DNA of 26,759 nt from Nanobdellati archaeon (GTDB lineage: Archaea > EX4484-52 > WAPT01). The translations under genes were made by a program, and so were the position numbers. Shown piece by piece: positions 2,204-18,876 of the stretch. The stretch is taken from the NCBI GenBank assembly GCA_015520605.1, contig WAPT01000013.1, positions 1-26,759 of the forward strand, read 5' to 3'. Within the stretch, counting starts at the first letter, position 1, and each line of letters opens with the position of its first letter. A model generated the notes under the pieces. The model was not told the DNA's origin. It was given only the letters and a program-made list of their open reading frames with translations, and made no database searches.

Positions 2204-2779
2204 ATGCACACCACTAAAAGATGTTTCATAGCATTTAACCTACCGGAACGCGTAAAGGACGAGATTCTTAATGCAATAGGAGGACATACACGTGAAGTTA
2301 AAAGAGTTGCCGATGTGAAGTTCGTAAGCAGAGAAAACCTGCACATAACCGCGAAGTTTCTCGGGAACATAAGCGAGAGTACAATAGAGGATATTTCACG
2401 TGCCTTAACAGACCTATCTAGAAACTTGCGTGAAGTTCAATGTGAACTTCATCCAGACTTAGGATGCTTCCCCAGCGAGAACCACATACGGGTTGTGTGG
2501 GTCGGGGTAAGCTCGGACGATAAGCTCGAAAATATGATGCGTGAAATTGATGACGAGATCTCAAAAATCGGGTTCAGAAAGGAAAAAAATTACATACCCC
2601 ACATAACCGTGTTTAGAGTGAAGAAAGTTCACAATAAGAACAGGTTGCGTGAACTTCTGAAGAAATCCAAAATACCAAAAGTGAAATTCATTTTGAAGGA
2701 AGTGGTACTTTACGAAAGCGTACTAAGACAAGAAGGACCAACATACCTCCCATTAAAGGTTTACCATCTCTCAAGGTGA
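2204..2779 (+). CDS. thpR: RNA 2',3'-cyclic phosphodiesterase (2H family, LigT/ThpR)
   Basis: N-terminal RCFIA, two HxT motifs (LHITAKF, PHITVFR), GCFP...RVVWVG, and C-terminal LYESVL...GPTY. Confidence 0.92.
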   Translation: MHTTKRCFIAFNLPERVKDEILNAIGGHTREVKRVADVKFVSRENLHITAKFLGNISESTIEDISRALTDLSRNLREVQCELHPDLGCFPSENHIRVVWVGVSSDDKLENMMREIDDEISKIGFRKEKNYIPHITVFRVKKVHNKNRLRELLKKSKIPKVKFILKEVVLYESVLRQEGPTYLPLKVYHLSR

Positions 2780-2786
2780 ATTAAAC

Positions 2787-3200
2787 GTGAAGATAAACGT
2801 GAACTTCACTGATGTTTTCCTTTTAGTATCTTTCTTTTTTCTTTCCATCCTCACTTGTGTTTTAGCTGGGCGTTTCCATGTGAAGGTGGTTGATGCCTGT
2901 GAACTCGAGAACTACAAAAATGATTATGTGAAAGTTTGCTTTTCCAAAACTTCAATAAAAAAGGGCCACAACTTTGTTAGAATCTATATTCTTGATAATT
3001 CTTCCAAAGCTTGTGGTGAACTCATAATTTTTTCACGTGACGTGAACATGAACTTAATGAGTAGAAATATTATTTGTGCAGAAGGAGAAGTAAATTATAA
3101 TGGAATTATGGTTGTTAAGAAGCTCTATATTTGTGAAGATAATCTCTTATGTTTACAGCAACACCCCTTTCAAACTCCATCATCTCATCAGGAGTCATGA
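2787..3200 (+). CDS. Hypothetical membrane-anchored protein, possibly OB-fold
   Basis: GTG start after an AGGTGA SD, one N-terminal hydrophobic helix, then a beta-rich domain (ICAEGEVNYNGIMVVKKLYI). The 3' end overlaps tgtA. Confidence 0.6.
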   Translation: MKINVNFTDVFLLVSFFFLSILTCVLAGRFHVKVVDACELENYKNDYVKVCFSKTSIKKGHNFVRIYILDNSSKACGELIIFSRDVNMNLMSRNIICAEGEVNYNGIMVVKKLYICEDNLLCLQQHPFQTPSSHQES

Positions 3201-4851
3201 GCGCCGTTCCACATCCAATAAGTTCGTTCTCTGTTGTTTTTACCATAACTTCATCCCCAACCCTTATTTTGCCTGAGCTTTTCACCACGAACTTTGCGAA
3301 CACGTTTTTCCCCTCTTTAACGAACGACTCCGCCTCCTCATCAACCACCACAACATAATCCTCCCCGAAAAGACGCTCCGCTCTCATGAAAAAGTAAAGG
3401 GTTGGGACAAAAAGACCATCTTGCGCCCTCATCGTGCCGAGGAGTTTGTCTCCATCGTAAATTCTCCTTATCGCACCACTTGCTTTGGAAAACTCGACGT
3501 GAAGGTTCATTGTTTTAAAGATGGGGGCTACATCAATACCGTACTGGTAAATAATAACTGCCCTAACTATTTCTATTGCTTCTTCCTCACTATCTGTAAC
3601 TTTCCCCTCATCCTCCCAACTTTCCGAGGTCATTTCGGGAAATACCGTCTGCGCAAAAGGATATGTACATCTCAACTCATGAGGTATGTTGTATTTGAGC
3701 CAGCGGAACGTTCTTTTACTCTTTACCCTCCTCGCTTTTCTTGCCGCCAATCTAAAGGTTGGCCTCGTCATACTAAGATCATCAAAATAGAAAGTGCCTT
3801 TAAGGCGTGAAGCTGGCTCAAATTTATCAAGGAATTTCTTATATTTTCTTAGCTCGAGATAGGCTTTGATCATGGAGGGGTGTGATCTTATCCTCTGCTC
3901 GACCAGCTCCCACAGTCTCTTTTCGTAAATTGCCTGTTTGATGGTTTTGAGCTCCTCTGCAATGACATGAAGGTTGTGGAGCGCCAATTCTCGCTCGGTG
4001 AATTCCCTTATGGAGTAAGATGTGCATACAGGACATGTGCAGGCGACATCTCTCATCTCATTTATGTTGAAGCTGTGACCTGTCTGAAGGAGGTATTTAC
4101 CACGTTTTGCTGCTAAGGCATAGTAAGCACTATCAAATAAGTCTATTCCTAGGAGGACAGCTAAACTGAATATTAGCGGGTGTCCGGCTCCAAAAAGGTG
4201 TACTGGCTTGCTGAGTGGGAGTTGCTGCTTGGCTGTAAGTATCTGGTTGACCACTATATCAAACCAATAGTTATCGAGCGCAGGCACCACGCTGCCGATG
4301 CAGTACAGGTCGAAGTCCATCTCTGCCATTTTCCTTGCGCAATAGGCAACAAGATCCATGTGTTTGCCCCCTTGGATGGGTCCGGCCCATAAAGTGGAAT
4401 CCTTCCCGAGAGTGAACAATTTCCTCGCTCTCCTTATAGTCTCATCGACCATTTCTTTTGCTTTCTGTTTGTTTTCCCCCAACCCCACAATAAGGTCGAG
4501 AATCACACCTATGTCTGTGTTGATCTTCTTCTGAAAATCAATAGCGCTTTCGTTTGTCAGCTCAACATCCTTATACTGGTAGGCTTGAAATGCTCCGCTG
4601 TCCGTCATGATCACACCATCGAAACCCAAGAAATTATGGAGCCCCATCTTTATCACTTCATCGCGCTTCGTTTTCCAGAGGATATAGGAGCTCGTGATGA
4701 TCGGAAGACCAAGTTTCTTTATTTCTGCTGGTTTGATCGTCGGTATGTTCGGGTTATAAACCACAAAAATTGTGGGTGTTTCAAGTACTTTCCCTCTTAC
4801 TTTAAACTTACCTATTCTTGCAAGACCTTCCCTTTCCTTTATTTCAAACAT
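3115..4851 (-). CDS. tgtA: Archaeosine tRNA-guanine(15) transglycosylase (ArcTGT)
   Basis: ARIG..ETP, MTDSGAFQ (catalytic Asp), GPIQGG, PVHLFGAGHP, DLFDSA, Zn site CTCPVC...HNL, LWELVEQRIRSHP, and a C-terminal PUA domain (GKNVFAKFV...IRVGDEV). Confidence 0.95.
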   Translation of the reverse strand: MFEIKEREGLARIGKFKVRGKVLETPTIFVVYNPNIPTIKPAEIKKLGLPIITSSYILWKTKRDEVIKMGLHNFLGFDGVIMTDSGAFQAYQYKDVELTNESAIDFQKKINTDIGVILDLIVGLGENKQKAKEMVDETIRRARKLFTLGKDSTLWAGPIQGGKHMDLVAYCARKMAEMDFDLYCIGSVVPALDNYWFDIVVNQILTAKQQLPLSKPVHLFGAGHPLIFSLAVLLGIDLFDSAYYALAAKRGKYLLQTGHSFNINEMRDVACTCPVCTSYSIREFTERELALHNLHVIAEELKTIKQAIYEKRLWELVEQRIRSHPSMIKAYLELRKYKKFLDKFEPASRLKGTFYFDDLSMTRPTFRLAARKARRVKSKRTFRWLKYNIPHELRCTYPFAQTVFPEMTSESWEDEGKVTDSEEEAIEIVRAVIIYQYGIDVAPIFKTMNLHVEFSKASGAIRRIYDGDKLLGTMRAQDGLFVPTLYFFMRAERLFGEDYVVVVDEEAESFVKEGKNVFAKFVVKSSGKIRVGDEVMVKTTENELIGCGTALMTPDEMMEFERGVAVNIRDYLHKYRAS

Positions 4852-4902
4852 AATCGTGCTTTTTTTGCTAAATTATTAAAGGTTTGGCGATTAGCTTAGT
4901 GC
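4852..4902. promoter_or_regulatory. Putative bidirectional TATA promoter between tgtA and the RaSEA-ArcS gene
   Basis: TTATTAAA at 4873-4880 (TTTAATAA on the minus strand) lies 21-22 nt from both start codons in a 51-bp gap. Neither gene has an SD. Confidence 0.5.
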
Positions 4903-6306
4903 ATGGCTGAATGTGTTATCATCACCTACAGCGGGAAGTGTTTTTGGGGAAAGTGTATATTCTGTCCTTTCGGTCAAAAGGAGAAAGGGAGAAAGAGCTG
5001 TGAAGAGCTCAAGAGAGAGGTTGAAGAGAAAATAAAGAAGTGTAAGGAAAAGACGAATTTTGATGAGGATGAAAGGAAAGTGTTGAAGTTCTTTAACTCT
5101 GGAAGCTTTCTCGATGAAAATCAAATTCCCGCTGAGTTCAGGAAGACGCTAATCGATATCGCGAGAAAACATGGGTTTGATTCTGTGGTGGTCGAGGTTG
5201 TCCCTCAGTTCGTTATTGAAAAGAGGAAGGAAGCCTGCTCCCTTATCAAGTACGCATTGAATAAGGGTGTTGAGCTCTGGTTTGCTATGGGGCTTGAAGC
5301 AGCTGATGATGACATCCTTGCTAAGATAAACAAGCCGTTCAGCATTAAACAATTCGTGGAGGCGTGTAAGATAATAAGGAGTTGTGGGGGTAAAGTGAGG
5401 GCATATTTAATGGTTAATCTGCCCTTTGTGGAAGACGATATTACCCTCCTTGTAAAATCACTTGCCTTCTGTAAAGATCATACTGATAAAGCCGTGCTCA
5501 TAAACACCTATGCAAGGCCGGGAACTGCACTCTTCAAACTCTGGCTCGAGGGAAAATGGCATCCAATCTCGAGAAAGGAGTTTGAAGATAGAGTTAAAAA
5601 AGCGCTTGAACTCAGCGGGGTTGGGGAGAACTTTGTAGAGAGATACTACGAGGATTATATATGTCCTCCGAGGATCCCAAAAAAAGAAAGAGAATTTCTA
5701 ACGGGTGTCGGTAGAGAGTACCTTCTACATCCTCACTTCAACCTGTGGCATGACTATATAGTTAAGGTTTACGAGCCCCCTTCGTTCAAGAAGTTCGCAC
5801 TCTTTCTCCCCTGCTCCTACAGGAAGCCCTACTCAAAGTCAGCAACCCACAGAGCCATATTAAGGAAGCTCGTTCAGCTGTCGTTCTACGGGAGGATACA
5901 CCAGATAATGATATCAAATGCTGGAGTCGTGCCAAGAGAGTTCGAGAACGAGTATCCCTTCAACAGCTACGACTGGGAGGAATGGAAAGAAACCGAGGAA
6001 GTTCAGAAAGAATACTATGAGGTTACAAGGCAGAGGCTTGAGAATTATATAAGGGAGAAGAAGGACAATTATATCCTCTGGTTTGCGTATCTCAAGCCGG
6101 ATTCACTTTCTTACAGAGCGCTCATGAATGCGGCAAGAGCTGTTGGGGTTGAGATCGTAGATTGCGTTGACCACGATATCTACCACCGGATTAAAGAAAC
6201 CTACGGGAAACAGGTACTGACTCACCCGGATCTCCTAGACGGCATGATGAAAAAAATAAAGGAATATGTGAAGAAGTGTCCAGATTTTAGTGATGGGAAA
6301 AAGTGA
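4903..6306 (+). CDS. Radical SAM RaSEA-like (TIGR01210-type) domain fused to an ArcS-like DUF5591 domain; putative bifunctional archaeosine synthase
   Basis: N-half: C13-x4-C18-x2-C21, KFFNSGSFLD, MGLEAADD, INKPF, VRAYL, GT-x-x-x-x-L-W-x-x-G-x-W-x-P. C-half: LPCSYRKPYSKSATH (PC-x3-KPY-x2-S-x2-H) and GVVPREFE..YP...YD. Confidence 0.85.
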   Translation: MAECVIITYSGKCFWGKCIFCPFGQKEKGRKSCEELKREVEEKIKKCKEKTNFDEDERKVLKFFNSGSFLDENQIPAEFRKTLIDIARKHGFDSVVVEVVPQFVIEKRKEACSLIKYALNKGVELWFAMGLEAADDDILAKINKPFSIKQFVEACKIIRSCGGKVRAYLMVNLPFVEDDITLLVKSLAFCKDHTDKAVLINTYARPGTALFKLWLEGKWHPISRKEFEDRVKKALELSGVGENFVERYYEDYICPPRIPKKEREFLTGVGREYLLHPHFNLWHDYIVKVYEPPSFKKFALFLPCSYRKPYSKSATHRAILRKLVQLSFYGRIHQIMISNAGVVPREFENEYPFNSYDWEEWKETEEVQKEYYEVTRQRLENYIREKKDNYILWFAYLKPDSLSYRALMNAARAVGVEIVDCVDHDIYHRIKETYGKQVLTHPDLLDGMMKKIKEYVKKCPDFSDGKK

Positions 6307-7370
6307 TCATTATGAGTTCGGATGGTTTTCTGAAAAGACGGAAGATGTTCCTTGAAAAAATGAAGAAGAACGGAATAAGCTGCTCCGTTCTTTATGCAAG
6401 GGATTTTCATCCCAACTTTTACTATCTGACCGGGGTCGTTGATTTTGTGTCGATATTGCTTGCTGACGCTGAAGATGATAAATTCGTTCTTTTTTTAACC
6501 TGTGAGGATCTTGTGCCGAAGGGTTTTGAGGGAGAGGTCAGAAAAATGGGAAAAGATTCCATTAAAGAGCTCTCTGTTCTTCTCAAAAACAGAAAAACCG
6601 TTTGCGTGGATTTCTCACTGCCCCACCACACCATATCAAGACTCTCCAGGGATATGAAAATTCCTCTCAGTAAGATGCGTGACATCTCTGAACTCATACT
6701 GAAGATGAGGGCTGTGAAGGACGATGCAGAGGTGGATAAAGTTAAGAAGTCCTGTGATATTTTGGAAAAGTTGTTTGAAATGGGTGAGAGTGAACCATTA
6801 TGGAAACATACTGATGAGGGTGCATATTTCCTACTCAAGAGATGGATGGCTGAGATGCAGGTTGATCCCGCGTTTGACCCTCTCGTTTGTTATGACGAAA
6901 ACAGCTCTATCATCCATGGTATAAAAAGCGGGAAAATGTGTGAAAGGGTTGCTCTTGTCGATATGGGTGTAAGGTTTCGGAATTACTGTAGTGATGCCAC
7001 CAACACGTACGTTTTTGATGAGGAATTGGAAAGGATAAGAGAAGTTTTGATTGAACTTCTTCATGAACTTTCCAGAAACGCTCGTGATGGCGTCAGAATT
7101 TCCGAGTTGTGTGACCATGCGGAAAGATGTCTCAAAGATTATGGATTTGGTGAGGAAGCGTACTTCAATTTTCACTCATTAGGACACGGAGTAGGGTTAG
7201 AGGTTCATGAAGAGCCCCTGCTCACAAAGAACAGCAATGCGGTGCTCAAGAAAAACATGACAGTCGCTTTTGAACCAGCAGTCTATTTTAAAAGGAAGTT
7301 TGGTATCAGGGTTGAGACCGTTGTGCTTGTAGGAAAAAGGAGAGGGAAGAAACTGATCAAAATTAGATAG
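6303..7370 (+). CDS. Xaa-Pro aminopeptidase/dipeptidase, M24 family
   Basis: NFYYLTG, RAVKD..E, VDMG...YCSDAT, HSLGHGVGLEVHE, EPAVY and GIRVE metal-ligand motifs. GTGA overlap with the upstream stop codon. Confidence 0.9.
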   Translation: MIIMSSDGFLKRRKMFLEKMKKNGISCSVLYARDFHPNFYYLTGVVDFVSILLADAEDDKFVLFLTCEDLVPKGFEGEVRKMGKDSIKELSVLLKNRKTVCVDFSLPHHTISRLSRDMKIPLSKMRDISELILKMRAVKDDAEVDKVKKSCDILEKLFEMGESEPLWKHTDEGAYFLLKRWMAEMQVDPAFDPLVCYDENSSIIHGIKSGKMCERVALVDMGVRFRNYCSDATNTYVFDEELERIREVLIELLHELSRNARDGVRISELCDHAERCLKDYGFGEEAYFNFHSLGHGVGLEVHEEPLLTKNSNAVLKKNMTVAFEPAVYFKRKFGIRVETVVLVGKRRGKKLIKIR

Positions 7371-7371
7371 A

Positions 7372-8712
7372 CTACTCCAGGTCATTCTGTCCCAGAACGG
7401 TTATGCTACTTTTTCTCTTCGTTTTTACTTCCCTCCCCACAAGAATAGATATACCTTTGCTTGCCGCCCTCAAGATTTCGTCAGTTATATCAGCATCCAC
7501 CACCACTGCTCTTGCGTTCTCCACCTGGGTAAGCGCTTTTTCCAGCTCTTTAAGGGGAACTCTACCGATAAACTCCAGTTTCTCGTTGAATATTGATGCT
7601 GCACGCGTTCCAACAAGATCTTCAAGTTCTCTTTTAAAAATATCTTTTATTTCTGGGTGGGTTTCTTCAATTTTTTCCATCCTTATAGAGATATTTTTTT
7701 TCTCCATTGATGACTGATCTTCCTCTTTTTTTTCACCAGTTCTTATATGTTTTGGTTTTGTATGTTTTCTTTCTTCCCGCACACCCACCGACAATGTCTG
7801 TTCTTTTTCATTGAATTTCTGTGTATTCTCTCTTTTTTTATCAATACCGTCTGCGGTAAACGACCCCTTTACTTCACTCAAATACTGCGTTCCCTGCTGA
7901 CCTCCAATCCCCTCTACCGGAACAGCCTCGCGCAGACACTTATACAGTTCCTTGCGCGTTAGCTCCTCTACCTCCTTACCACGTGGTGCCCTCGCCACAT
8001 AATCTATATCTGCTTTCTGAAGAAGCTCTTTGAGGATTAAATCACCACCCCTATCTCCATCCAGAAGGACGGTGACCTCCTTCTCTTTAGAAAGGTCGAT
8101 TATGGTCTGAGGGACGCTTGTTCCCTCGAGCGCTATTACATTCCTAATGCCGTGTTTGAGAAGGTTTATCACATCGGCTCTTCCTTCCACCACAATTATC
8201 TTGTCAGACTCCACAACCGCCGGACCGGCAGGCAGGCCTCTGTACTCCGTTATCTCATTTGCACGGACGGACTGCATGAGATCTTCCGTTATCTGTGAGG
8301 GTTCAGGGAGCTGAGCAAGAACCTGCTGAAGAAGCTCTTTTGCTCTGTCCACGATGTACTTCCTCTTTACAGTTCTCAAATCCTCCACATAAACCACTTT
8401 TATATTTGCGTTACACGGTCCTATTCGTTCTATGGTTTCAAGTGCTGCGGCTATAAGAACCGTTTCAGCTACATCAAGACTGGTGGGTATGGTTATTGTG
8501 CCCTCGGATTTGCCCTTGTCGTAAGTTATATCGACTTCAATTCTCCCCATCCGTCCAGTACGTTGTAGCTCTCTTAAATCAAGATCTGGTCCAAGCAAAC
8601 CCTCAGTTTGACCAAAGATGGCACCTATAACATCTGGCCTTTCCACATAACCAGAGGCTTTGAATTTGGCTTTAATGAGATATTTTACCGATGTCTGAGC
8701 AAGTTTAGCCAT
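7372..8712 (-). CDS. dnaG: Archaeal DnaG (TOPRIM primase-like, exosome-associated)
   Basis: KYLIKA, VERPDVIGAIFGQTEGLLG, LRELQRTGRMGRI, IIVVEGRADV, DGDRGG and EVEEL motifs. AGGTGA SD at 8720-8725. Confidence 0.96.
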   Translation of the reverse strand: MAKLAQTSVKYLIKAKFKASGYVERPDVIGAIFGQTEGLLGPDLDLRELQRTGRMGRIEVDITYDKGKSEGTITIPTSLDVAETVLIAAALETIERIGPCNANIKVVYVEDLRTVKRKYIVDRAKELLQQVLAQLPEPSQITEDLMQSVRANEITEYRGLPAGPAVVESDKIIVVEGRADVINLLKHGIRNVIALEGTSVPQTIIDLSKEKEVTVLLDGDRGGDLILKELLQKADIDYVARAPRGKEVEELTRKELYKCLREAVPVEGIGGQQGTQYLSEVKGSFTADGIDKKRENTQKFNEKEQTLSVGVREERKHTKPKHIRTGEKKEEDQSSMEKKNISIRMEKIEETHPEIKDIFKRELEDLVGTRAASIFNEKLEFIGRVPLKELEKALTQVENARAVVVDADITDEILRAASKGISILVGREVKTKRKSSITVLGQNDLE

Positions 8713-9629: not shown

Positions 9630-9986
9630 ATGTCATACAAGAAGGGGTATAAGTTTGAGTGGGAGGTTAAGAAGTTTCTGGAAAAGAAGGGCTACTACGT
9701 CATACGCTCCGCAGGGAGTAAAAAGCCAGACATAATTGCAGGGAAAGAGGGCAACATTATAGTTGTGGAATGTAAATACACGGCTAAAAGCAAGTTATAT
9801 TTACTAAAGGATGAGGTAAATAACCTAATATATGTGGCCTCAATGTTCAGAGCCAAACCAATATACTTAATTAAAAAGAAGAACTCTGGTTTGTTTGTTG
9901 TTGAAATACACCATTTAAAAGAATTAGACGGACACTATTTTTTCGTTGATTTAGATAAGTTAAAAAATAAGTTAAAAATAGAATAA
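9630..9986 (+). CDS. hjc: Holliday junction resolvase Hjc
   Basis: Y.KG..FE.E...L...GY.VIRSAGS..PDIIAG....VVECK PD-(D/E)xK signature. Confidence 0.9.
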   Translation: MSYKKGYKFEWEVKKFLEKKGYYVIRSAGSKKPDIIAGKEGNIIVVECKYTAKSKLYLLKDEVNNLIYVASMFRAKPIYLIKKKNSGLFVVEIHHLKELDGHYFFVDLDKLKNKLKIE

Positions 9987-10013
9987 ATTAAATCAACAAT
10001 TTTGTGTAGTTTT

Positions 10014-10193
10014 TTATGTGGTTTTTGGTAGTATTCCGACCCTCTCCAATAAGAACCAAAGAGTTATGAAAAACAAGAGAATAATAGAAAGGTAGGTTGT
10101 TGTATCTAGATTTTTAGTTGTAAAAAAAGATTTTGTTGATTTATAAAAAATGTAGAAAACAACTACATCCCTTAAATAAGATCTTAACCCCAT
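10014..10193 (-). CDS. Small hypothetical membrane protein (about 59 aa)
   Basis: ATG 10193, two hydrophobic segments ending in WFLLERVGIL. It fills the gap between hjc and the HTH gene. Confidence 0.55.
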   Translation of the reverse strand: MGLRSYLRDVVVFYIFYKSTKSFFTTKNLDTTTYLSIILLFFITLWFLLERVGILPKTT

Positions 10194-10257
10194 AACAACA
10201 TAAAATAATAATTTCAATTTTTAAATAAGTGTTCTTAAAATAAAATTTTGAGTGTGT

Positions 10258-10986
10258 ATGGAGGAAAGAAACTACACGCCGTTTGAAAAGGCAAAGAGAA
10301 TGCTTGCAGTACAGATAGCTGGAGAAATTGTTCTCTCTAACGATCCAGGGGTTGTCATTCAGAAGTGGAGAACAATATTCAAAATACCTCAGAGAAGACT
10401 CGCTCAAGAGTTGGGAATAATGCCATCCGTCATTTCTGATTATGAAAGTGGGAGAAGAAAATCTCCCGGAGTTAAATTCATAAGAAAACTTGTTGATGCA
10501 ATACTAAACATTGATGAAAAAAGAGGAGGGGATATAATAAAAGAGTATTCTACTTTATTCCCAGAGGAAAAAATAAGTGATGTTATATTAAGTATGAAAG
10601 AATTCGAGAGACCCGTCTCTCTTGAAAAGTTCGCTGAAACTATAGATGGGTATGTTGTTATCAATAGTGATGTTAAGAAGTATATTTTTGGATATACTAT
10701 TATAGATTCAGTGAGAGCTATAATAGAACTATCACCAGCAGAATTAGTTAAGATGTATGGATTAACGACAGAAAGGGCACTAGTATTCACAAACATTACA
10801 CACGGTAGGTCCCCATTCATAGCAATCAAAGTTACTAATTTAAGACCGGGTGTTGTTGTGTTCCATGAAATTGATAAATTAGATAGTATAGGTAGAAGAA
10901 TAGCTGAAGTTGAAAACATACCTGTTATCCTTTCTAGAATAAAAAGTGTCGAAGAAATTATTCGAAGATTGAAATGTTTAGAGTAG
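10258..10986 (+). CDS. XRE-HTH transcriptional regulator (COG1709-like)
   Basis: IAGEIVLS..PG..I.KWR, SVISDYESGRRKSPG, GYTIIDS, ERALVFT....GRSP.IAI motifs. Confidence 0.85.
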   Translation: MEERNYTPFEKAKRMLAVQIAGEIVLSNDPGVVIQKWRTIFKIPQRRLAQELGIMPSVISDYESGRRKSPGVKFIRKLVDAILNIDEKRGGDIIKEYSTLFPEEKISDVILSMKEFERPVSLEKFAETIDGYVVINSDVKKYIFGYTIIDSVRAIIELSPAELVKMYGLTTERALVFTNITHGRSPFIAIKVTNLRPGVVVFHEIDKLDSIGRRIAEVENIPVILSRIKSVEEIIRRLKCLE

Positions 10987-11109
10987 ACCCCTTTATTTCA
11001 TATGGATGATATAATAATATCATTGTATATTATATAGTTTTGTTATATAACATTGTTATATTTTGTGGTGATGTTTTAATAAGAAGTTTCACATGAAATA
11101 AAGGGGTCT
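10985..11109. other. Replication origin oriC: inverted ORB pair around an AT-rich unwinding element
   Basis: TCCATATGAAATAAAGGGGTCT (minus strand, 10985-11006) and TTCACATGAAATAAAGGGGTCT (plus strand, 11088-11109) match at 20/22 positions. They flank an 81-bp very AT-rich spacer directly upstream of cdc6. Confidence 0.85.
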
Positions 11110-11195
11110 CTGTAAAGAAGGTGTGTGAATTGTTTAAATTTTTTACTAACAACAACCTTAACTTACCGAAAGTTCAAGTAATTCGTGTGGTTCGT

Positions 11196-12434
11196 ATGGA
11201 GAATAAACAACTCACACATTTCACAACACCACCACAACAAACTCTTGAAAATTTATTTGAAAGTTTTATGAATAAAGAATCTATTTTTAGAAATAAAGAT
11301 GCACTTTCTATTAAATACTCACCGGAAAAAATCTACCATAGAGATGAACAGATCAATGCTTTAAGTAGAATTCTTGCACCTATGCTTAGAAATGAAAAAC
11401 CATCTAATGTTTTTATCTACGGTTTGACAGGTACAGGTAAAACTCTCGTAACGACTTATGTCACCACCAATCTCGAAAACTTCACAATAAAACACAACAT
11501 TCCTTTGAAAGTACTTTTCGTTAATTGTAAAATGAAGAAAGTTGCCGATACAGAGTACAGACTTTTGGCTTATCTTTCTTCTTTACTCGGAGAGGGTGTG
11601 CCTGCAACAGGACTTCCGACTGATGAAGTTTACAGACGGTTTTATTCAGCGCTGGAAAATATTGGTGGGAATGTTGTTATCGTGCTTGATGAGATAGATG
11701 CTCTTGTGAAAAAGGTGGGTGATGAACTTCTCTATAACTTCACGAGAATGTGCGAAACGATAAAAGATGTTAATCTTAGTCTTATTGGTATCTCGAACGA
11801 TCTGTCCTTTATGGAGTATTTGGATGCCAGAGTCAAATCCTCCCTTTCTGAAGAGGAGATAATATTTCCACCATACAACTACGAACAGTTAAAGGACATC
11901 CTTTTTGATAGAGCTATGGTGGCGTTCAACCCGGGTAAGATTGATGAGGCTGCCATAACTAAATGTGCAGCCCTTGCAGCGCAGGAACATGGTGATGCGA
12001 GGAGAGCACTCGATCTTTTAAGGATAGCTGGAGAAATAGCGGAGAGAAACGGTGATGAGAGGGTTGTGGAGAAACACATAGACTTAGCGGAGGAGAAACT
12101 CGATCTGGATAGGATGAGTGAAGCAGCAAGGGTGTTGCCGAAACACTCCAAGATAGTGCTTTATACTGTATTGTGTTTGCTCCGAAATAGGGATAAAGTC
12201 CTTACAGGAGACATACAAAAATACTACGAACATATCTGTGAGCAACTCGGCGTGAGACCTCTAACTCAAAGGAGAATATCTGATATCATTGCTGAGCTGG
12301 ATATGCAGGGTTTGATAAACGCGAGCGTCATTTCAAAGGGCAGGTATGGAAGAACAAGGGAGATAACACTCTCCCTCTCAAAAGCGACACACGATAAAAT
12401 ACTCTTGCAACTCAAACAGGAATTAGATTTATAA
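11196..12434 (+). CDS. cdc6: Orc1/Cdc6 replication initiator
   Basis: IFRNKDAL...Y.P....HRDEQI, Walker A GLTGTGKT, Walker B IVLDEID, RVKSSL, FPPY...QL..IL, GDARRALDLLR, and wHTH ELDMQGLI...SKGRYGRT. Confidence 0.96.
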   Translation: MENKQLTHFTTPPQQTLENLFESFMNKESIFRNKDALSIKYSPEKIYHRDEQINALSRILAPMLRNEKPSNVFIYGLTGTGKTLVTTYVTTNLENFTIKHNIPLKVLFVNCKMKKVADTEYRLLAYLSSLLGEGVPATGLPTDEVYRRFYSALENIGGNVVIVLDEIDALVKKVGDELLYNFTRMCETIKDVNLSLIGISNDLSFMEYLDARVKSSLSEEEIIFPPYNYEQLKDILFDRAMVAFNPGKIDEAAITKCAALAAQEHGDARRALDLLRIAGEIAERNGDERVVEKHIDLAEEKLDLDRMSEAARVLPKHSKIVLYTVLCLLRNRDKVLTGDIQKYYEHICEQLGVRPLTQRRISDIIAELDMQGLINASVISKGRYGRTREITLSLSKATHDKILLQLKQELDL

Positions 12435-12456
12435 TCTTGTCACAAAACCTCTAATT

Positions 12457-13983
12457 ATGGACGCTGTCCAAAAACTCATTCAGGATCTTATGGAGCGCGG
12501 AATTCTTATCGAACCGTCAGCTTTTGATTTCATAAAACAACACAACATACCACCCGATAAGATTTATTCTTTAAAAATTGAGGAGGGGGTACTCACAAGA
12601 AAACACCTCGAACCGCTTATCGGTGGTGTAGGTTGTGAAGGGAGAAGAGACGAAAATGAGAATATGGGAAACACTTCCAATTTACTTGCTTTTGTTGAGA
12701 TTGTAAGGAAAAAGAAAAGAGCAATAGCAGAAGAGTATGATTTTTCAGTGGTGGTTGAAAACAAAGAGACTAATAATGGAGAAATTTCCCAAAAAGGTGT
12801 GGAAATTTTCGTAGAAATGTTTAAAGATAGGTACGAAAGGCTGCGCGATTTACTTGTTCAGAGAGCCGAACTCAGGAACGCGATATCAATAGGCAGGCTC
12901 AAGGACGCGAGAAATCTCGAAGGGGAGGTTGTGGTAATAGGGCTTGTCAGAACAAAAACAAAAACTAAATCTGGAAGTTACATACTCGAACTGGAGGATC
13001 CAACCGGAGTGGTGAGTGTTTTCGTCAGAGAGGAAGCTTCAAAACTGGCCGAATATGTAGTGGAGGATGAGGTGATAGGTGTTAGAGGTACGTTCAACGG
13101 AAATTTCTTGTACGCTTCGAATATAGTGTTTCCCGACATACCTATCCCCACAGGAGTAAATAAGGTCAAAGATCCTGTTGCAGCAGTCTTCATTTCCGAT
13201 CTGCATTATGGGAGTAAGCAGTTTATAGTAGACATTGAAAGAAGGTTTCTTAGGTGGATAAATGACAAAAATGATGAGCTCGCATCTAAGGTTAAATACA
13301 TCTTCATAGCGGGAGATCTCGTCGATGGTATAGGGATTTATCCAGAGCAGGAGGATGATCTTCTCATCAAAGACATCTATAATCAGTACGAGCTTCTGGA
13401 AAGGTTCATTGAAAGAATCCCCGAACACATAGCGGTGGTGTTGTGTCCTGGCAACCACGATGCGGTTAGAAGTGCGGAACCACAACCACCCATCCCTAAA
13501 GACTTTGTCCCGAACCTTTATTCAATGAGTAATATTTTTATGGCGACCAATCCAGCTTACGTGAGAATACACGCGATGGATGGGGAGAAGGGAGTTCTGG
13601 TTCTGATGTATCACGGTTATAGCTTTACATCCATGATAGACGCCATGACACCTATAAGGAAGCACGGCACCACACATCCACAGTATGTTATGAGGGAGAT
13701 ATTAAAAAAGAGACACCTCGCCCCCACATACGGATGTGTGATTCAGGTACCATATCCCAAAGATCAGCTCGTGATAGATAAAGTGCCGGACATATTTCAC
13801 ACAGGAGATTTGCACTCTCACGGTGTTGATAATTATAAGGGCGTAACGCTCATAAGTTCGTCAACTTTTCAGGGGCAGACGGCCTTCATGGACAGGGTTG
13901 GACACGTGGCGAATCCGGGCAAGATAACGGTTGTGGAACTTAACACAAGAGACGTCAGAGTGCTCGATTTTTACGGAGGATAG
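12457..13983 (+). CDS. polB: DNA polymerase D small (proofreading) subunit DP1
   Basis: OB fold (LELEDPTG) and calcineurin-like phosphoesterase motifs ISDLHYGS, GDLVDGIGIYP, PGNHD, YHG, RHLAPTYG. Confidence 0.95.
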   Translation: MDAVQKLIQDLMERGILIEPSAFDFIKQHNIPPDKIYSLKIEEGVLTRKHLEPLIGGVGCEGRRDENENMGNTSNLLAFVEIVRKKKRAIAEEYDFSVVVENKETNNGEISQKGVEIFVEMFKDRYERLRDLLVQRAELRNAISIGRLKDARNLEGEVVVIGLVRTKTKTKSGSYILELEDPTGVVSVFVREEASKLAEYVVEDEVIGVRGTFNGNFLYASNIVFPDIPIPTGVNKVKDPVAAVFISDLHYGSKQFIVDIERRFLRWINDKNDELASKVKYIFIAGDLVDGIGIYPEQEDDLLIKDIYNQYELLERFIERIPEHIAVVLCPGNHDAVRSAEPQPPIPKDFVPNLYSMSNIFMATNPAYVRIHAMDGEKGVLVLMYHGYSFTSMIDAMTPIRKHGTTHPQYVMREILKKRHLAPTYGCVIQVPYPKDQLVIDKVPDIFHTGDLHSHGVDNYKGVTLISSSTFQGQTAFMDRVGHVANPGKITVVELNTRDVRVLDFYGG

Positions 13984-13996
13984 AAGTAGACAATCT

Positions 13997-14230
13997 CTAC
14001 TCTTCGTCTATGGGTTTTTTGATCTCCTCAAAAGGAAAGATATTTTTTAGCACGTTGTGGATGTATTTGGAGTCCACAAGCTCCCTGAAAACTATGAGAA
14101 CACTCTTCCTGACATCCTCCTTATCAAGCTCTTCAATTTCGTAATCCTCAACATACTCACTATTCTTCAGAGCATTCTCAACATCTTCCCTTCTGGCATC
14201 TAAAATGATCTCAATCATCGACACACGCAT
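13997..14230 (-). CDS. Small acidic hypothetical protein (possible beta-alpha-beta-beta-alpha fold)
   Basis: 77-aa ORF with a protein-like E/K-rich composition. A TTTATAAAA box (14254-14262) about 24 nt upstream of the ATG suggests a leaderless transcript. Confidence 0.65.
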   Translation of the reverse strand: MRVSMIEIILDARREDVENALKNSEYVEDYEIEELDKEDVRKSVLIVFRELVDSKYIHNVLKNIFPFEEIKKPIDEE

Positions 14231-14303
14231 GAGGAAATATTGTGGCTGTTAACTTTTATAAACTTCTCTCGTGTTAATACTGGAAAATTTTCCCACTTAA
14301 TCA

Positions 14304-14321
14304 CCGAAAAATTTATATATA
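14304..14321 (+). promoter_or_regulatory. BRE-TATA promoter candidate with no long ORF downstream
   Basis: CCGAAAAA-TTTATATATA; predicted start near 14340. Confidence 0.5.
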
Positions 14322-14352
14322 AGTTAGTATAATATATTAGGGTCAACCTTCT

Positions 14353-14642
14353 CCTTACTGAAAAGAAATGAAAAATCGGGCTCGGACGGTGGGGGTTGCG
14401 TGCCTTCTTGCCTCCTACCTCCGCCCTCCGATTAATTTCACATAATTTCTTCAAAGGGGTTAACACGAGCAACAACCATCCCGGTCGTCCACACACCATC
14501 CATCAGAAGAAAGATGGAATGTGGAGTCATCCCGGGATTATTCTGTGGAGCATCCCGGGATAATGTACATAACTTTGGCTACCCACTTGCAGAACTTCCA
14601 TAGATTTAGATGGATGTGGGTAGCCGCCATTTTAACTACCTC
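14353..14642 (-). ncRNA. Candidate three-hairpin RNA or small-ORF transcript; family unknown
   Basis: Minus-strand promoter at 14665-14681, hairpins at 14577-14625, 14478-14538 and 14374-14433, then a U-rich tract (TTTTTCATTTCTTTTC). Confidence 0.4.
14520..14564 (+). repeat. Tandem direct repeat of about 21 bp containing palindrome ATCCCGGGAT
   Basis: TGTGGAGTCATCCCGGGATTAT and TGTGGAG-CATCCCGGGATAAT. Confidence 0.7.
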
Positions 14643-14664
14643 AATTCAAAGTATGGTTTGATTA

Positions 14665-14681
14665 TTTATAAATTTTACCCG
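14665..14681 (-). promoter_or_regulatory. BRE-TATA promoter candidate
   Basis: Minus strand CGGGTAAAA-TTTATAAA; predicted start near 14642. Confidence 0.5.
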
Positions 14682-14708
14682 AAATTTTCGAAGATCTTCG
14701 ACAATAGA

Positions 14709-15365
14709 CTAAACGCTTGATTTGAGTTCCAATAACTCTCTTCTAAGCTTTGCGAGCTCGGTTAGATATTCCCTTTCCTTAGATATTTGGGACACTTTTC
14801 TTACTTTCCTCGCAGCTTCCTTACTTTCCTCACCCTTTCTTGCTTTACTTTTTTCTTGCTTTTTACTTACCTCTACTTCAACCTGAGCGGTAGCTTCAGT
14901 CTTTTTTATGTTCTTTGCTTCATCCAGAATCGTTGCGGTGCTGCTCTTTATCACTTCATCCACAAGCTTGTCGATGGCAAGAAGCATCTCATTAACCATG
15001 GCTTCGATTCTATTCAATCTCTCATGGTTGTTCAGCACAACTTTACCGAGGATACTTATGTTATCGACTATCTTTTCAAGTGAAGCAACGCGTTGCTCTA
15101 ACAGACCAAACGAGGATGCGAAGTTATTGGTGTTGGAACCTGATGCTTTGCTGGAGGATTTCAACTCATTAACTACAGATACAATCCCATCTATGTCCGT
15201 GTGAAGTTGGTGAAGGTAAGTGTAAATTTTCTGGAACTCATCCTGAATGTACGAGCTAAGCTGGTTATAGTTGTTTTCGAGTCCGAGAACACGGTTCTTT
15301 ATCTCCTCAAGCTCGCTGTTTGGTTTTTTTCCTTCCTTTTTCCCAAAAAGAAAACTTAACACCAT
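14709..15365 (-). CDS. Hypothetical coiled-coil protein
   Basis: Starts MVLSFLFGKK at ATG 15365, which avoids overlap with DP2. Heptad-rich helices, a charged linker and a C-terminal helix. Divergent from DP2. Confidence 0.75.
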   Translation of the reverse strand: MVLSFLFGKKEGKKPNSELEEIKNRVLGLENNYNQLSSYIQDEFQKIYTYLHQLHTDIDGIVSVVNELKSSSKASGSNTNNFASSFGLLEQRVASLEKIVDNISILGKVVLNNHERLNRIEAMVNEMLLAIDKLVDEVIKSSTATILDEAKNIKKTEATAQVEVEVSKKQEKSKARKGEESKEAARKVRKVSQISKEREYLTELAKLRRELLELKSSV

Positions 15366-15420
15366 ACGCTCTATATGGGACTGAAAGTAAATAAAAGTTT
15401 TGATATACGGATATGTTGTC

Positions 15421-18400
15421 ATGAAGATCCGCGATTACTTCGAAATGATCAGAAAGGAGTGTGAGAGAGCTTACGAAATAGCCAACAGGGCCAGGGACAA
15501 GGGATTCGATCCTGAGGATAGAGTAGCAATACCTGTAGCTGAAGACCTTGCCGCGAGGGTGGAAGGCCTTGTATCAATAATATTCCCTCAATTATTCGAT
15601 TCTGGGTTGAAGGAGAGGATAAGGGAACTGGAGAAAGAATATCATAAAAACGACGAGAGAGTGGCATTTATAGTAGGAAAAGAAGTGGCTCTTGACAAAT
15701 TTTGTAACTTCTATTCAAAAGAGAAAGCTGCCGAAGCCGGTGTGAGGGTCGCAGTTGCATACTTAACACTTGGTGTTGTTACAGCTCCTCTTGAAGGCAT
15801 ATCTAAAGTCAAGATTAAGAAAAATAAAGACGGAACGGAATACCTCGCTATTTACTACGCCGGTCCGATCAGAAGCGCCGGTGGTACAGCATCAGCTATG
15901 TCCGTTGTTGCTGCCGACTACATAAGAAGGGCTTTGGGGCTGGATCGCTACAAAGCGGAAGAAGTTGAGATACTCCGTTACTACACCGAAGTGGAGGACT
16001 ACTACAACCGTGTTGCCAAGAAGCAGTACCACCCGACCAAGGAGGAGATAGAGTTCATAATAAAGCATATGCCTGTAGAGATTACGGGAGAGCCAACAGA
16101 GAAGCTGGAGGTGAGCAACTATAAGGATCTGGAGAGGGTAGAGACCAATAGAATAAGGGGGGGAATGTGTTTGGTTCTCCTTGACGGCCTTCCCTTAAAG
16201 GCGGAGAAAGTACTGAAGAGGATAAAGAAGTACGGCCATGAATTCGACCTGGAGGACTGGCTCTGGCTGGAGGAGTTCGTTCAGCTGAAGCACAGGATTC
16301 ATGCTGCCAAGGAAGTCGACGAAGATTCCAGCGTTAAGTACGTGCCGAGCACCAAATACCTTGAAAAGATCGTGGCCGGCAGGCCGATAATAGCGCACCC
16401 GGCAAGAAATGGGGGTTTCAGGCTCAGGTATGGCAGGGCAAGAACATGCGGTATTGCCGCAACGGCCATACACCCAGCTACGGCACACCTGATTGACTTT
16501 CTCGCAATAGGAACGCAGATGGCAACGGAAGCTCCGGGGAAAGCAACCGTAGTTACTGTTTGCGACTCGATAGAAGGCCCGGTGGTTCTCCTGAAAAATG
16601 GAGACATAGTTGAGCTCAAAAGCAGGGAGGGTGTCGAAAAGTACAGAAAAGATGTTGTCAAAATATTAAGTCTGGGAGACATACTTGTGCCGTTTGGCGA
16701 GTTCCTATCCAACAATCATGTTCTCCTTCCTGCAGCTTACTGCGAGGAGTGGTGGGCCCTGGAAGTTAAGAAAGCTTTGGAAGAGGGTAGGAAGTGTAGC
16801 ATTAACTTAACAAAGTATGTGGAAAAACCATACCCTGCTCCATCCTTGGAGGAGGCGATAAAGATCTCGCAGGAACTGGAAGTTCCACTCCATCCCTATT
16901 ACAACTTCTTCTGGCATGATATAACCAAAGAGCAGTTGAAGCTGCTGATAAACCACTTCTCCAGGAGTAAGCTCGAAGGAAACGAGTTAACCGTGAAGTT
17001 CGACAGGAAAGTTCACGAGGTTTTGCAGGAGCTGTGTGCGCCATGTGAAGTTAGGGATGAAAAAATAATCCTGAAGGGAAAAAGTATTGCGATTCACTTC
17101 TGTCTTGGCAGGCCTGATGAAGGTAACGTGAAGGAATTGATGGAAATTGTGGACTCATGCACATCCGTTATGGAAGCGCTACAGAAACTCAGTGGCATAA
17201 AAATAATGGAGAAAGGCCCTACCAGAATAGGGACGAAGATGGGAAGGCCCGAGAAGGCTGATAAGAGGGTGATGAAGGGCAGGCCGCAGATTCTTTTCCC
17301 CTGTGGACAGGAAGGGGGAAGGATGAGGAACATAATGGAAGCCTACTCAAAAGGATACGTGGAAGCGGAGTTCCCCCTGTACAAGTGTGAGAAATGCAAC
17401 GATTTTGTCTTCTACCCTACCTGTCCATTCTGCGGAAGTAGAACAACTCGTTACTACCAGTGCGTGAAGTGCAACAGGATAGTGAAGGAAGAGAAGCACT
17501 GCGGAACAGACGCGAGACCTTATGCTAAAATGAATGTGAAGATAAGGAAGTTTTTGGATGCTGCTCTCAAAAACTTAGGGATGAGTCCTCCTACACTGTT
17601 TAAAGGTGTGCGCGGTGTTTCGGGAGCGGAGAGAACCATGGAGAGGTTGGAAAAGGGACTGTTGCGTGTCATACATGGGCTGTACGTGAATAAGGACGGT
17701 ACGATAAGGTACGACAGCACCGATGTCCCTCTAACTCACTTCAAACCGAAAGAAATTGGCGTGAGTGTTGAGAAGTTAAAAGAGCTTGGTTATACTCATG
17801 ACATTTACGGCAACGAGCTAATACACGAGGATCAGGTTCTCGAGCTGATGCATCAGGATATAATAATCTCTGACAACGATGAGAGTTCTGCAGCGGAATA
17901 CTTATTGAAGGTAGCGCAGTTTGTGGATGAACTTCTCGTGAGGTTTTACGGGCTTGAGCCATACTACAACGCTAAAACAAAAGAGGATCTTGTAGGAAAG
18001 CTGGTGATAGGGCTTGCTCCACACACCTCAGCTGGAATTGTGGGTAGGATAATCGGATTCACAAAAGCAAGGGTGTGCTTTGCTCACCCCTTCTGGCATG
18101 CAGCGAAGAGAAGAAACTGTGATGGAGATGAGGACAGCATAATGCTTCTTATGGACGCTCTGCTAAACTTCTCCAGAAAGTATTTGCCAGCTACACGCGG
18201 AGCTTCAACTATGGATGCACCTCTCGTTTTAACCGTGCAGTTGAATCCAGAGGAGATAGATGACGAGGCATGGAATGTGGACATAGATGATCACTACCCT
18301 CTCGAGTTTTATTACGCCACCCTTCGTTATGAGATGCCCACTGAAGTTGAAGCTAGACCTGAAGTGGTGGAGGATGTGCTTGAAGAGGAAGAGATTCACA

Positions 18401-18876
18401 TTAAGTTCACTCATGACGCGTCAGACATTCACGATGCACCATTCAAAACAAGGTATGTGTTGTTGAAGAAGATGGAGGAAAAGATAGAGGAGCAGTTGAA
18501 GGTTGCAGAACTCATAAGAGCATGCGATGAGAATAAAGTTGCTGAGGCCGTCATAGTCAACCACTTCATGCGTGACATAAAAGGTAACCTAAGAACATTC
18601 TCCAAACAATCGTTTAGATGTGTGGATTGCAACGAGAAATACAGGCGTATGCCTCTGAGCGGGAAGTGTGAAAAGTGTGGTGGAAAGCTTCTGCTCACTG
18701 TGTCTGAAGGCACCATAAGAAAATACGTCGACCCTACCAAAATGCTTCTGGAAAGGTATAAAGTGTCCAGCTATGTTATTCAGGTGTTCCAGCTGCTTGA
18801 GAGAGACATAGATGATCTGTTTGGAAAGAAGGGGAGACAGGTTAATCTTTTCAGTCTTGCATCAAATAACGCATGA
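15421..18876 (+). CDS. polC: DNA polymerase D large subunit DP2 (no intein)
   Basis: DLAARVEGL, YAGPIRSAGGT, GGFRLRYGR, RIGTKMGRPEK, central Zn fingers, NKDGTIRYD, catalytic HAAKRRNCDGDED, MDAPL, and C-terminal Zn finger FRCVDC...CEKCGG. Confidence 0.97.
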   Translation: MKIRDYFEMIRKECERAYEIANRARDKGFDPEDRVAIPVAEDLAARVEGLVSIIFPQLFDSGLKERIRELEKEYHKNDERVAFIVGKEVALDKFCNFYSKEKAAEAGVRVAVAYLTLGVVTAPLEGISKVKIKKNKDGTEYLAIYYAGPIRSAGGTASAMSVVAADYIRRALGLDRYKAEEVEILRYYTEVEDYYNRVAKKQYHPTKEEIEFIIKHMPVEITGEPTEKLEVSNYKDLERVETNRIRGGMCLVLLDGLPLKAEKVLKRIKKYGHEFDLEDWLWLEEFVQLKHRIHAAKEVDEDSSVKYVPSTKYLEKIVAGRPIIAHPARNGGFRLRYGRARTCGIAATAIHPATAHLIDFLAIGTQMATEAPGKATVVTVCDSIEGPVVLLKNGDIVELKSREGVEKYRKDVVKILSLGDILVPFGEFLSNNHVLLPAAYCEEWWALEVKKALEEGRKCSINLTKYVEKPYPAPSLEEAIKISQELEVPLHPYYNFFWHDITKEQLKLLINHFSRSKLEGNELTVKFDRKVHEVLQELCAPCEVRDEKIILKGKSIAIHFCLGRPDEGNVKELMEIVDSCTSVMEALQKLSGIKIMEKGPTRIGTKMGRPEKADKRVMKGRPQILFPCGQEGGRMRNIMEAYSKGYVEAEFPLYKCEKCNDFVFYPTCPFCGSRTTRYYQCVKCNRIVKEEKHCGTDARPYAKMNVKIRKFLDAALKNLGMSPPTLFKGVRGVSGAERTMERLEKGLLRVIHGLYVNKDGTIRYDSTDVPLTHFKPKEIGVSVEKLKELGYTHDIYGNELIHEDQVLELMHQDIIISDNDESSAAEYLLKVAQFVDELLVRFYGLEPYYNAKTKEDLVGKLVIGLAPHTSAGIVGRIIGFTKARVCFAHPFWHAAKRRNCDGDEDSIMLLMDALLNFSRKYLPATRGASTMDAPLVLTVQLNPEEIDDEAWNVDIDDHYPLEFYYATLRYEMPTEVEARPEVVEDVLEEEEIHIKFTHDASDIHDAPFKTRYVLLKKMEEKIEEQLKVAELIRACDENKVAEAVIVNHFMRDIKGNLRTFSKQSFRCVDCNEKYRRMPLSGKCEKCGGKLLLTVSEGTIRKYVDPTKMLLERYKVSSYVIQVFQLLERDIDDLFGKKGRQVNLFSLASNNA

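Follow-up and report, generated by a model that had tools for sequence, protein, structure and literature searches.

Can one polypeptide carry out both late steps of archaeosine (G+) synthesis? The question is raised by a 26,759-nucleotide stretch of contig WAPT01000013.1 from a Nanobdellati archaeon (assembly GCA_015520605.1), here called the window, in which an open reading frame at positions 4903-6306 joins a RaSEA-like radical S-adenosylmethionine (SAM) domain to a domain like the C1 domain of ArcS. It lies next to tgtA, the gene for the archaeosine tRNA-guanine transglycosylase ArcTGT. Archaeosine at position 15 stabilises archaeal tRNA, and the only enzymes described for its final steps are, to our knowledge, the two-subunit ArcS-RaSEA and the QueF-like and Gat-QueC alternatives. 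An original prediction, made from the letters of the window, saw here a RaSEA-ArcS fusion and a minimal archaeosine pathway. We give a probability of roughly 70% to the reading that the frame encodes a single-polypeptide archaeosine synthase, which would act after the divergently encoded ArcTGT and replace the two-subunit ArcS-RaSEA. The reading rests on the domain content of the protein, on the conservation of both motif sets, on linkage to and co-occurrence with tgtA, and on the near-absence of canonical ArcS and RaSEA from genomes that carry the fusion.

The frame is uninterrupted and starts 51 bp from the opposite-strand tgtA, as had been predicted. Its N-terminal half matches the RaSEA family TIGR01210 (E 5e-29, 101.5 bits; aa 5-221 on profile positions 17-229 of 313), which is the best NCBIfam match of the fusion, followed by TIGR01212 (53.1 bits) and Elp3 (36.1 bits). 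Membership of the radical SAM superfamily is supported by a Pfam Radical_SAM (PF04055) score of 31.5 bits at a cut-off of 29.5 and by the three cluster cysteines expected of RaSEA and of radical SAM enzymes. The C-terminal half matches DUF5591 (PF17884; E 2.4e-19, 70.1 bits at a cut-off of 26, aa 282-420), as expected of an ArcS C1 domain, and also the solved structure of AF0587 (2q07; E 8.9e-9). The motifs listed in the original prediction are all in the places given for them: besides the cluster motif CX4CX2C these are SGSFLD (aa 66-71), GLE (130-132), INK (142-144), AYL (167-169) and the signature PC-x3-KPY-x2-S-x2-H. This signature is named ArcS-specific in the accessible portions of two reports (bioRxiv 10.1101/2023.04.13.536721; PMC5699537).

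An AlphaFold2 model made with the family alignment as input has a mean predicted local distance difference test score (pLDDT) of 94.4 and a predicted template modelling score (pTM) of 0.89, which implies that the two domains are held in a fixed arrangement. Radical SAM folds dominate a Foldseek search with the whole 467-aa model; the top match is the Elp3 structure 8avg_C (E 1.6e-9), and queuine lyase stands at rank 21. The ArcS-RaSEA complex was not among the matches of this search, made with the whole model and not with the C domain alone. Compared with solved structures, the family profile scores 62.7 bits on queuine lyase 6p78, 56.6 on Elp3 and, for the C half, 54.5 on AF0587/2q07. We considered whether the N domain is itself an Elp3, an enzyme that has a GNAT domain and modifies U34, and rejected this; a separate true Elp3, scoring 734 bits, is encoded in the same genome.

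The protein belongs to a large family. There are 191 database relatives; among the 120 listed, lengths range from 400 to 510 aa, and PF04055 and PF17884 occur together in 119 of 120. Where the databases name them, they are called "DUF5591 domain-containing protein", "radical SAM protein", "archaeosine synthase" (JGI) or "hypothetical protein". Scanning one genome per prokaryotic species gave 467 pattern-matching stretches, 437 of which encode a relative. We kept 80 of these 437 loci, and all locus counts below refer to them. Most are labelled as DPANN-type archaea (Nanobdellati, Aenigmatarchaeota, Nanohalarchaeota, Micrarchaeota, Parvarchaeota, Woesearchaeota, Iainarchaeum) or as Altiarchaeota; two loci are labelled Thermodiscus, and Asgard and Culexarchaeia have single records, with the reservation that lineage labels on metagenome bins can be wrong. 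Clustered at 50%, the family reduces to about twelve full-length representatives. In two genomes of the same genus the orthologues are 90% and 67% identical to our fusion, with intact frames. Searching TIGR01210, PF04055 and DUF5591 and surveying architecture and synteny was a check proposed with the original prediction: all three families match, and the architecture is conserved in relatives.

Both motif sets are conserved. In an alignment of 38 members whose identity to the query is 36-66%, the residues found in all 38 include C13, C18, C21, S66, G67, D71, Q74, E98, G130-L-E132, K144, C304, K308-P-Y310 and S313, while at least 90% of the members retain P303 and H316. The only invariant cysteines are C13, C18, C21 and C304. 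As far as such an alignment can tell, both predicted active sites are under selection. Family members are also basic, with a median isoelectric point (pI) of 9.15 compared with 7.4 for 11 RaSEA and 7.2 for 12 ArcS proteins, which would suit direct binding of RNA or another nucleic acid.

Some relatives depart from the usual architecture. In P0152 (680 aa) the order is opposite, with DUF5591 followed by a fuller RaSEA-like domain (132 bits, profile 15-298); we count this second combination of the two domains in favour of an archaeosine synthase. P0207 and P0148 are further proteins of opposite order. P0207 (752 aa) has a C-terminal RaSEA domain above the cut-off after about 400 residues that have no Pfam or NCBIfam match, P0148 (544 aa) has a RaSEA-type C-terminus (the stretch without a family match spans 300-400 residues across these two proteins), and P0129 (635 aa) keeps the usual order with about 300 additional residues between the domains. 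In two genomes of the window's own phylum (G013:C53 and G007:C46) the fusion match falls into two pieces at about aa 181/182 within one open frame of 502 and 402 aa, and there may be an insertion between the pieces.

The genome of the window comprises 863 kb in 27 contigs and is 90.7% complete. Outside this locus it has no TIGR01210, DUF5591 or TGT match, so that the search for a stand-alone arcS or raSEA, also suggested beforehand, returned neither. A sample of the phylum contains 42 genomes, all from one order, and DUF5591 occurs in 31 of them. The frames are always of fusion length or truncated by a contig end, save for G032, which has two additional weak matches, one of them within its TgtA frame. 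TGT occurs in 33 of the 42, with one ArcTGT-type copy each. A second TGT is present in the same-genus genome G041 (G041:C3:31411-32571; a 409-aa frame with 401 bits on PF01702), and this may be a bacterial-type Tgt, as PMC8204110 reports in some DPANN genomes. DUF5591 and TGT are both present in 28 genomes and both absent from six, with DUF5591 alone in three and TGT alone in five. The two families agree in 34 of 42 genomes, although these genomes are related, the counts are not independent, and the comparison is not a statistical test. All eight discordant genomes are less than 90% complete; one of the six that lack both is 91% complete.

A wider set of 50 fusion genomes comes from the 80 loci, after we dropped 30, mainly nearest relatives and short contigs; at least five of the 50 are also in the phylum sample. 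ArcS is above the cut-off in none of the 50 and RaSEA in one (G171), while TGT is found in 48 and QueC is above the cut-off in 16. The fusion copies themselves score 85-153 bits on TIGR01210 in all 50 genomes, below the cut-off. The opposite picture is found in a sample of 101 Asgard-labelled genomes. There, strong ArcS-type DUF5591 matches (111-189 bits) and RaSEA matches fall in one and the same set of 57 genomes, with RaSEA above the cut-off in 56, and arcS followed by raSEA is adjacent in the large majority (for example in G100, G092, G133, G109, G048 and G083). The fusion is found in G042 alone, and G042 has neither canonical ArcS nor canonical RaSEA. Because the two distributions are nearly exclusive, the fusion and the ArcS plus RaSEA pair probably serve the same pathway step, and the gene content of these genomes points to the fusion as a replacement for the pair.

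The position of tgtA adds to this. The product of tgtA scores 434.8 bits on TIGR00432 (cut-off 350), which makes it an ArcTGT at equivalog level, and its Pfam scores are 247.6 bits for TGT, 44.1 for TGT_C2 and 76.4 for PUA. When aligned with ArcS C1, it lacks the ArcS-specific segment. Of the 80 loci, 63 include 2 kb or more of sequence upstream of the fusion. A tgtA gene is found in the 6 kb upstream in 26 of the 80; in every one of these 26 it is encoded on the opposite strand, and in 15 the distance is below 900 bp. Gaps of 32-71 bp between the two genes are seen again in several related loci.

How closely does the fusion resemble the enzymes whose work it would do? The ArcS-RaSEA complex of Thermococcus kodakarensis (families NF040592 and TIGR01210) has the same two catalytic modules and likewise has ArcTGT as pathway partner, but its modules are two chains, the alpha and beta subunits, whereas the fusion is one. 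The fusion order, RaSEA-like domain and then C1, is also the reverse of the arcS-raSEA gene order in the Asgard-labelled sample. Aligned with five canonical RaSEA proteins, the N half has SGSF(L)D, GLE, INKGF and xYL in common with them. The C half aligns with the C1 domain of five canonical ArcS proteins through the catalytic motif and the GVVPRE...YP..YD block and stops before C2 and PUA. ArcS had been predicted to be cut down to its catalytic-motif domain, and its TGT-like N domain, C2 and PUA are indeed all missing.

A radical SAM tree and a tree of the C half, both quick searches supported only by the Shimodaira-Hasegawa-like approximate likelihood ratio test (SH-aLRT), place the fusion more precisely. 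In the first, fusions and RaSEA group together against MiaB-like outgroups (99%). This tree is in effect unrooted: the Elp3 branch measures 3.55 and the base of the group formed by fusions and RaSEA is unsettled, and we make no claim about the ancestral form. The same subgroups return in both trees, a pattern compatible with a single ancient fusion whose two parts have evolved together ever since.

Several observations weigh against a single-chain archaeosine synthase. Neither half reaches a curated cut-off for its role: the N half scores 101.5 bits at a RaSEA cut-off of 212.15, and the C half scores 65.5 and 65.6 bits on the ArcS equivalogs NF040592 and NF053620 at cut-offs of 440 and 600, over the C1 region alone. 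The Pfam scan of the fusion gave no TGT, TGT_C2 or PUA match and so no tRNA-binding domain. Our canonical set, 11 stand-alone RaSEA and 12 full-length ArcS proteins that all come from one other phylum sample, the Asgard-labelled one, differs from the fusion in further ways. All 11 RaSEA proteins space their cluster cysteines as CX9CX2C and not as CX4CX2C. The fusion lacks their N-terminal extension of about 60-70 residues, and where they have a C-terminal module with five cysteines it has a linker and the DUF5591/C1 domain. RaSEA forms a clade of its own (100%) on a long branch, 2.68 substitutions per column from the fusions, and in the C-half tree the fusions likewise group by themselves (98%), separate from canonical ArcS C1 (98%) and from the short stand-alone proteins. 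The exception G171 has two stand-alone RaSEA-type matches, one at a contig end (217.7 bits) and one in a frame of 415 aa (190.4 bits), and could be a true co-occurrence or a mixed bin. The relatedness of the phylum genomes belongs on this side as well. Finally, stand-alone C1 proteins can give dG+ in Escherichia coli without RaSEA, according to the part of bioRxiv 10.1101/2023.04.13.536721 at hand; the radical SAM step would then not be needed in every C1 system.

The original prediction of a RaSEA-ArcS fusion thus stands as a RaSEA-like domain joined to the C1 domain of ArcS, and not as a union of two proteins that pass as RaSEA and ArcS, given the scores of both halves and the separate clade of the N half. 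Its description of the cluster motif as non-canonical is right in that CX4CX2C differs from the spacing of the 11 RaSEA proteins. Yet the motif is a family trait and not a defect, since in the sequences aligned here it is invariant across the fusion family and is also seen in the alignment to the archaeal Elp3 6iad. The minimal pathway has gained comparative support, with the correction that it is not peculiar to the window but shared by a large family. Of the findings that could have overturned the prediction none was made: the N half did not cluster with a non-RaSEA family, no separate arcS and raSEA were found elsewhere in the 90.7% complete genome, and the fusion is no artefact.

A single-polypeptide archaeosine synthase might work as follows. 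ArcTGT would place preQ0, probably salvaged in this organism, at G15 of the tRNA. The C1 domain would then add an amine donor to the nitrile through Cys304 of its PC-x3-KPY motif. In this scheme the motif cysteine would form a thioimide, as in QueF-type enzymes. The donor may be lysine, giving preQ0-Lys, by analogy with the T. kodakarensis ArcS. The radical SAM domain, with a [4Fe-4S] cluster on C13, C18 and C21 and with SAM, would cut the C-N bond of the adduct and leave the formamidine of archaeosine. Chemistry, donor and substrate level are in this way all carried over from sequence and from characterised relatives.

The work on T. kodakarensis is the closest precedent. The available sections of PMC11298593 report that ArcS alone is inactive and that lysine is transferred only by the ArcS-RaSEA complex, that the substrates of ArcS include the preQ0 nucleoside and its 5'-phosphate, and that RaSEA turns preQ0-Lys into G+. 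A single chain made of the two catalytic cores and lacking tRNA-binding domains agrees with these observations. The fusion would probably recognise only the local D-arm or the nucleotide, like the minimal substrates reported for ArcS. The original prediction added that tRNA binding might be supplied by the PUA domain of ArcTGT. The same sections state that ArcTGT does not co-purify with ArcS; if the fusion behaves alike, this precedent speaks against a stable complex with ArcTGT.

Two other families with related domains are useful for comparison. Queuine lyase 6p78 from Clostridium spiroforme is a radical SAM enzyme of the same branch with a 7-deazaguanine substrate, and it matches the model with a template modelling score (TM-score) of 0.65 normalised to the target. 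It differs from the fusion in being a bacterial single-domain enzyme of 251 residues without C1, and by its entry title it was crystallised with the free base queuine. Queuine lyase is reported to turn queuine into preQ1 for salvage. Stand-alone C1/DUF5591 proteins (phage and viral ArcS2, AF0587 with structure 2q07, and short Asgard-labelled forms) have the C1 domain and its catalytic motif but no radical SAM domain. The short Asgard-labelled proteins (L167-L173 and L176; 201-283 aa, with PCxxxKPY) lie outside both the fusion and the ArcS clades, and the genomes that encode them have no RaSEA match. A 170-aa DUF5591 protein of Methanobacterium virus PhiF1 (L166; MK994522.1, locus 1001-1612) is annotated as "putative archaeosine tRNA-guanine transglycosylase"; it is 46% identical to the fusion C half over 142 aa and nests in the fusion clade on a long branch. 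The ArcS of phage nt-1, when expressed together with DpdA2, gives dG+ in DNA, as stated in the accessible text of bioRxiv 10.1101/2023.04.13.536721.

What else could the fusion do? It might act on a free base, nucleoside or nucleotide and not on tRNA, either turning preQ0 into the G+ base for use by ArcTGT or trimming a salvaged 7-deazaguanine for ArcTGT in the manner of queuine lyase. We consider this unlikely, although the absence of TGT-like, C2 and PUA domains would suit such an enzyme, the best solved relative of the N half by family profile is the queuine lyase crystallised with free queuine (62.7 bits), the T. kodakarensis ArcS takes the preQ0 nucleoside and its 5'-phosphate (PMC11298593, in the sections available), and the organism's own genome shows no QueC, QueD or QueE. 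QueC is nevertheless above the cut-off in 16 of the 50 fusion genomes, the distribution is nearly exclusive with that of ArcS plus RaSEA, a family pI of 9.15 suits nucleic-acid binding, and TIGR01210 is the best NCBIfam match. A division of labour within the protein is also conceivable: the C1 domain alone could make G+ from ammonia or glutamine and leave the radical SAM domain to other work, such as a further change of G+ or another tRNA modification. In the portion of PMC5699537 at hand ArcS is described as accepting Gln, Asn or NH4+ in vitro, a phage C1-only ArcS yields dG+ in E. coli in the preprint excerpt discussed above (bioRxiv 10.1101/2023.04.13.536721), and the N half stays under the RaSEA cut-off, lacks the cysteine-rich tail and spaces its cluster differently. 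RaSEA is, on the other hand, the nearest curated family (101.5 bits compared with 53.1 and 36.1), the fusions group with RaSEA against MiaB-like outgroups at 99%, P0152 pairs DUF5591 with a RaSEA-like domain that covers more of the profile, and 49 of the 50 fusion genomes have no canonical RaSEA for the lyase step, which makes such a division quite improbable in our view.

DNA would be the substrate if the locus resembled the phage systems of DpdA plus ArcS2 that make dG+. C1-only homologues do occur in archaeal viruses and cyanophages (eight phage records), and the PhiF1 copy nests in the fusion clade, albeit on its long branch. But the neighbour of the fusion is an equivalog-level ArcTGT with a PUA domain that scores only 34.6 bits on DpdA (cut-off 200), the fusion itself is in no phage record, none of the eight (0/8) covers at least 80% of the query, and the surrounding genes are housekeeping genes (DnaG-type Toprim, Hjc, Cdc6, PolD). 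We rejected this reading on the strength of the ArcTGT, the missing phage fusion and the neighbours, and regard it as very improbable. That the fusion is an artefact of assembly or gene calling, or a decaying gene, is hardly credible at all: we found no evidence for it, and it is refuted by the frame, which is intact here and in the 90% and 67% identical same-genus orthologues, by an architecture that recurs in 119 of the 120 listed homologues from several sources, and by the invariant catalytic residues.

A single-chain archaeosine synthase needs a source of preQ0, and salvage had been suggested. The organism's own genome is consistent with this, as no QueC, QueD or QueE was found in it. Two weak matches to the QueC Pfam family turn out to be ThiI and TtuA, and the search for PTPS/QueD gave no match. 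The 17 other radical SAM frames do not include a QueE; the nearest, with a weak 43 bits on a QueE model, is an NrdG activase that scores 216 bits as such. At 90.7% completeness the genome also shows no Vut_1/YhhQ transporter and no QueF or QueF-like enzyme, in a search that left out QueT, ECF-type transporters and GTP cyclohydrolase. Salvage of preQ0 is plausible here from this gene content. The fusion is not specific to salvage, however, because QueC is above the cut-off in 16 of the 50 fusion genomes. The expected target is common, with a G at nucleotide 15 in 18 of the 22 predicted tRNAs. With 18 radical SAM genes in 863 kb the genome is rich in this superfamily for its size; the set includes the tetraether lipid synthase Tes (739 bits), Elp3, TYW1, two MiaB-like proteins, an HxsB/HxsC-like pair and an AmmeMemoRadiSam-type protein.

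Features of the archaeosine locus in the window (coordinates in nucleotides of the window; aa, amino acids of the fusion protein)
Feature	Position	Strand	Remarks
LigT/2',5'-RNA-ligase-family phosphoesterase gene	2204..2779	+	past 3' end of tgtA; Pfam LigT_PEase 77.3 bits
tgtA, ArcTGT (archaeosine tRNA-guanine transglycosylase), 578 aa	3115..4851	-	TGT catalytic, C2 and PUA domains
Intergenic spacer, 51 bp, between divergent genes	4852..4902	.	between both start codons
Central A/T-rich element AAATTATTAAA	4871-4881		in spacer; ~25 bp to either start codon
Fusion gene, 467 aa, RaSEA-like radical SAM + ArcS C1 (DUF5591)	4903..6306	+	ATG start; single frame without internal stop
N-terminal radical SAM domain, ~aa 1-240	4903..5622	+	TIGR01210 match
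[4Fe-4S]/SAM cluster motif C13-x4-C18-x2-C21	4939..4965	+	three cysteines of RaSEA/radical SAM type
ArcS C1-type domain, ~aa 262-440	5686..6222	+	PF17884 match
ArcS signature PC-x3-KPY-x2-S-x2-H, here PCSYRKPYSKSATH	5809-5850 (aa 303-316)	+	
M24 metallopeptidase gene	6303..7370	+	GTG start overlaps fusion stop by 4 nt

The features of the locus are collected in the table. The genome has a single TGT match, tgtA. The A/T-rich element in the middle of the spacer suggests, from its position and composition, a shared bidirectional TATA-type promoter with leaderless transcripts. The M24 metallopeptidase gene is probably co-transcribed with the fusion. We know of no functional link between an M24 metallopeptidase and archaeosine. 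By our own reading of the locus maps, 13 of the 80 related loci have an M24 homologue 3' of the fusion in the same orientation, and 12 have a LigT-family gene past tgtA; closer relatives have the whole block of LigT, tgtA, fusion and M24.

Further downstream the window holds genes of DNA metabolism, beginning with a DnaG-type Toprim gene (7372-8712) and an Hjc gene (9630-9986). A low-GC stretch at 9990-11120 (0.32-0.36 in 1-kb bins at 10-12 kb) lies directly upstream of an Orc1/Cdc6 gene (11121-12434), which is followed by the genes for the small (12457-13983) and large (15400-18876) subunits of PolD. The region from 9990 to 18876 may be a replication origin region.

RaSEA itself was reportedly found through comparative genomics by Yokogawa and colleagues in 2019. 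Our full-text literature search, outside which lay Yokogawa et al. 2019, Phillips et al. 2010 and the supplements, found no description of a RaSEA-DUF5591 fusion; in the works searched the term "TIGR01210" was absent and "DUF5591" appeared in one work only. Judged by its sequences, the fusion is widespread, is already in the databases under generic names, and is structurally distinct from both characterised subunits.

One can go further and ask whether the fusion represents an ancient archaeosine synthase lineage in its own right and not a recent weld of ArcS and RaSEA. It would then be a self-sufficient enzyme of 430-470 aa that performs both late steps without a tRNA-binding domain or an auxiliary cysteine module, acting on the nucleotide or free base or receiving its substrate from ArcTGT by hand-off, and DPANN-type archaea and Altiarchaeota would make G+ mainly in this way. 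We offer this broader proposal as a tentative one and think it doubtful as a whole.

The stripped-down form of the fusion would show which parts of ArcS and RaSEA are dispensable. Its predicted structure is very confident, and the fusion may serve as a compact, natural single chain for studying coupled amine-transfer and radical-lyase chemistry. The authors of PMC11298593, in the part available, still call for a structure that contains ArcS, RaSEA and tRNA. For the organisms themselves, the fusion is the sole ArcS-type gene in every fusion genome that we surveyed and the sole RaSEA-type gene in all but one, and a single-polypeptide archaeosine synthase would explain how the pathway is completed in many archaea with small genomes.

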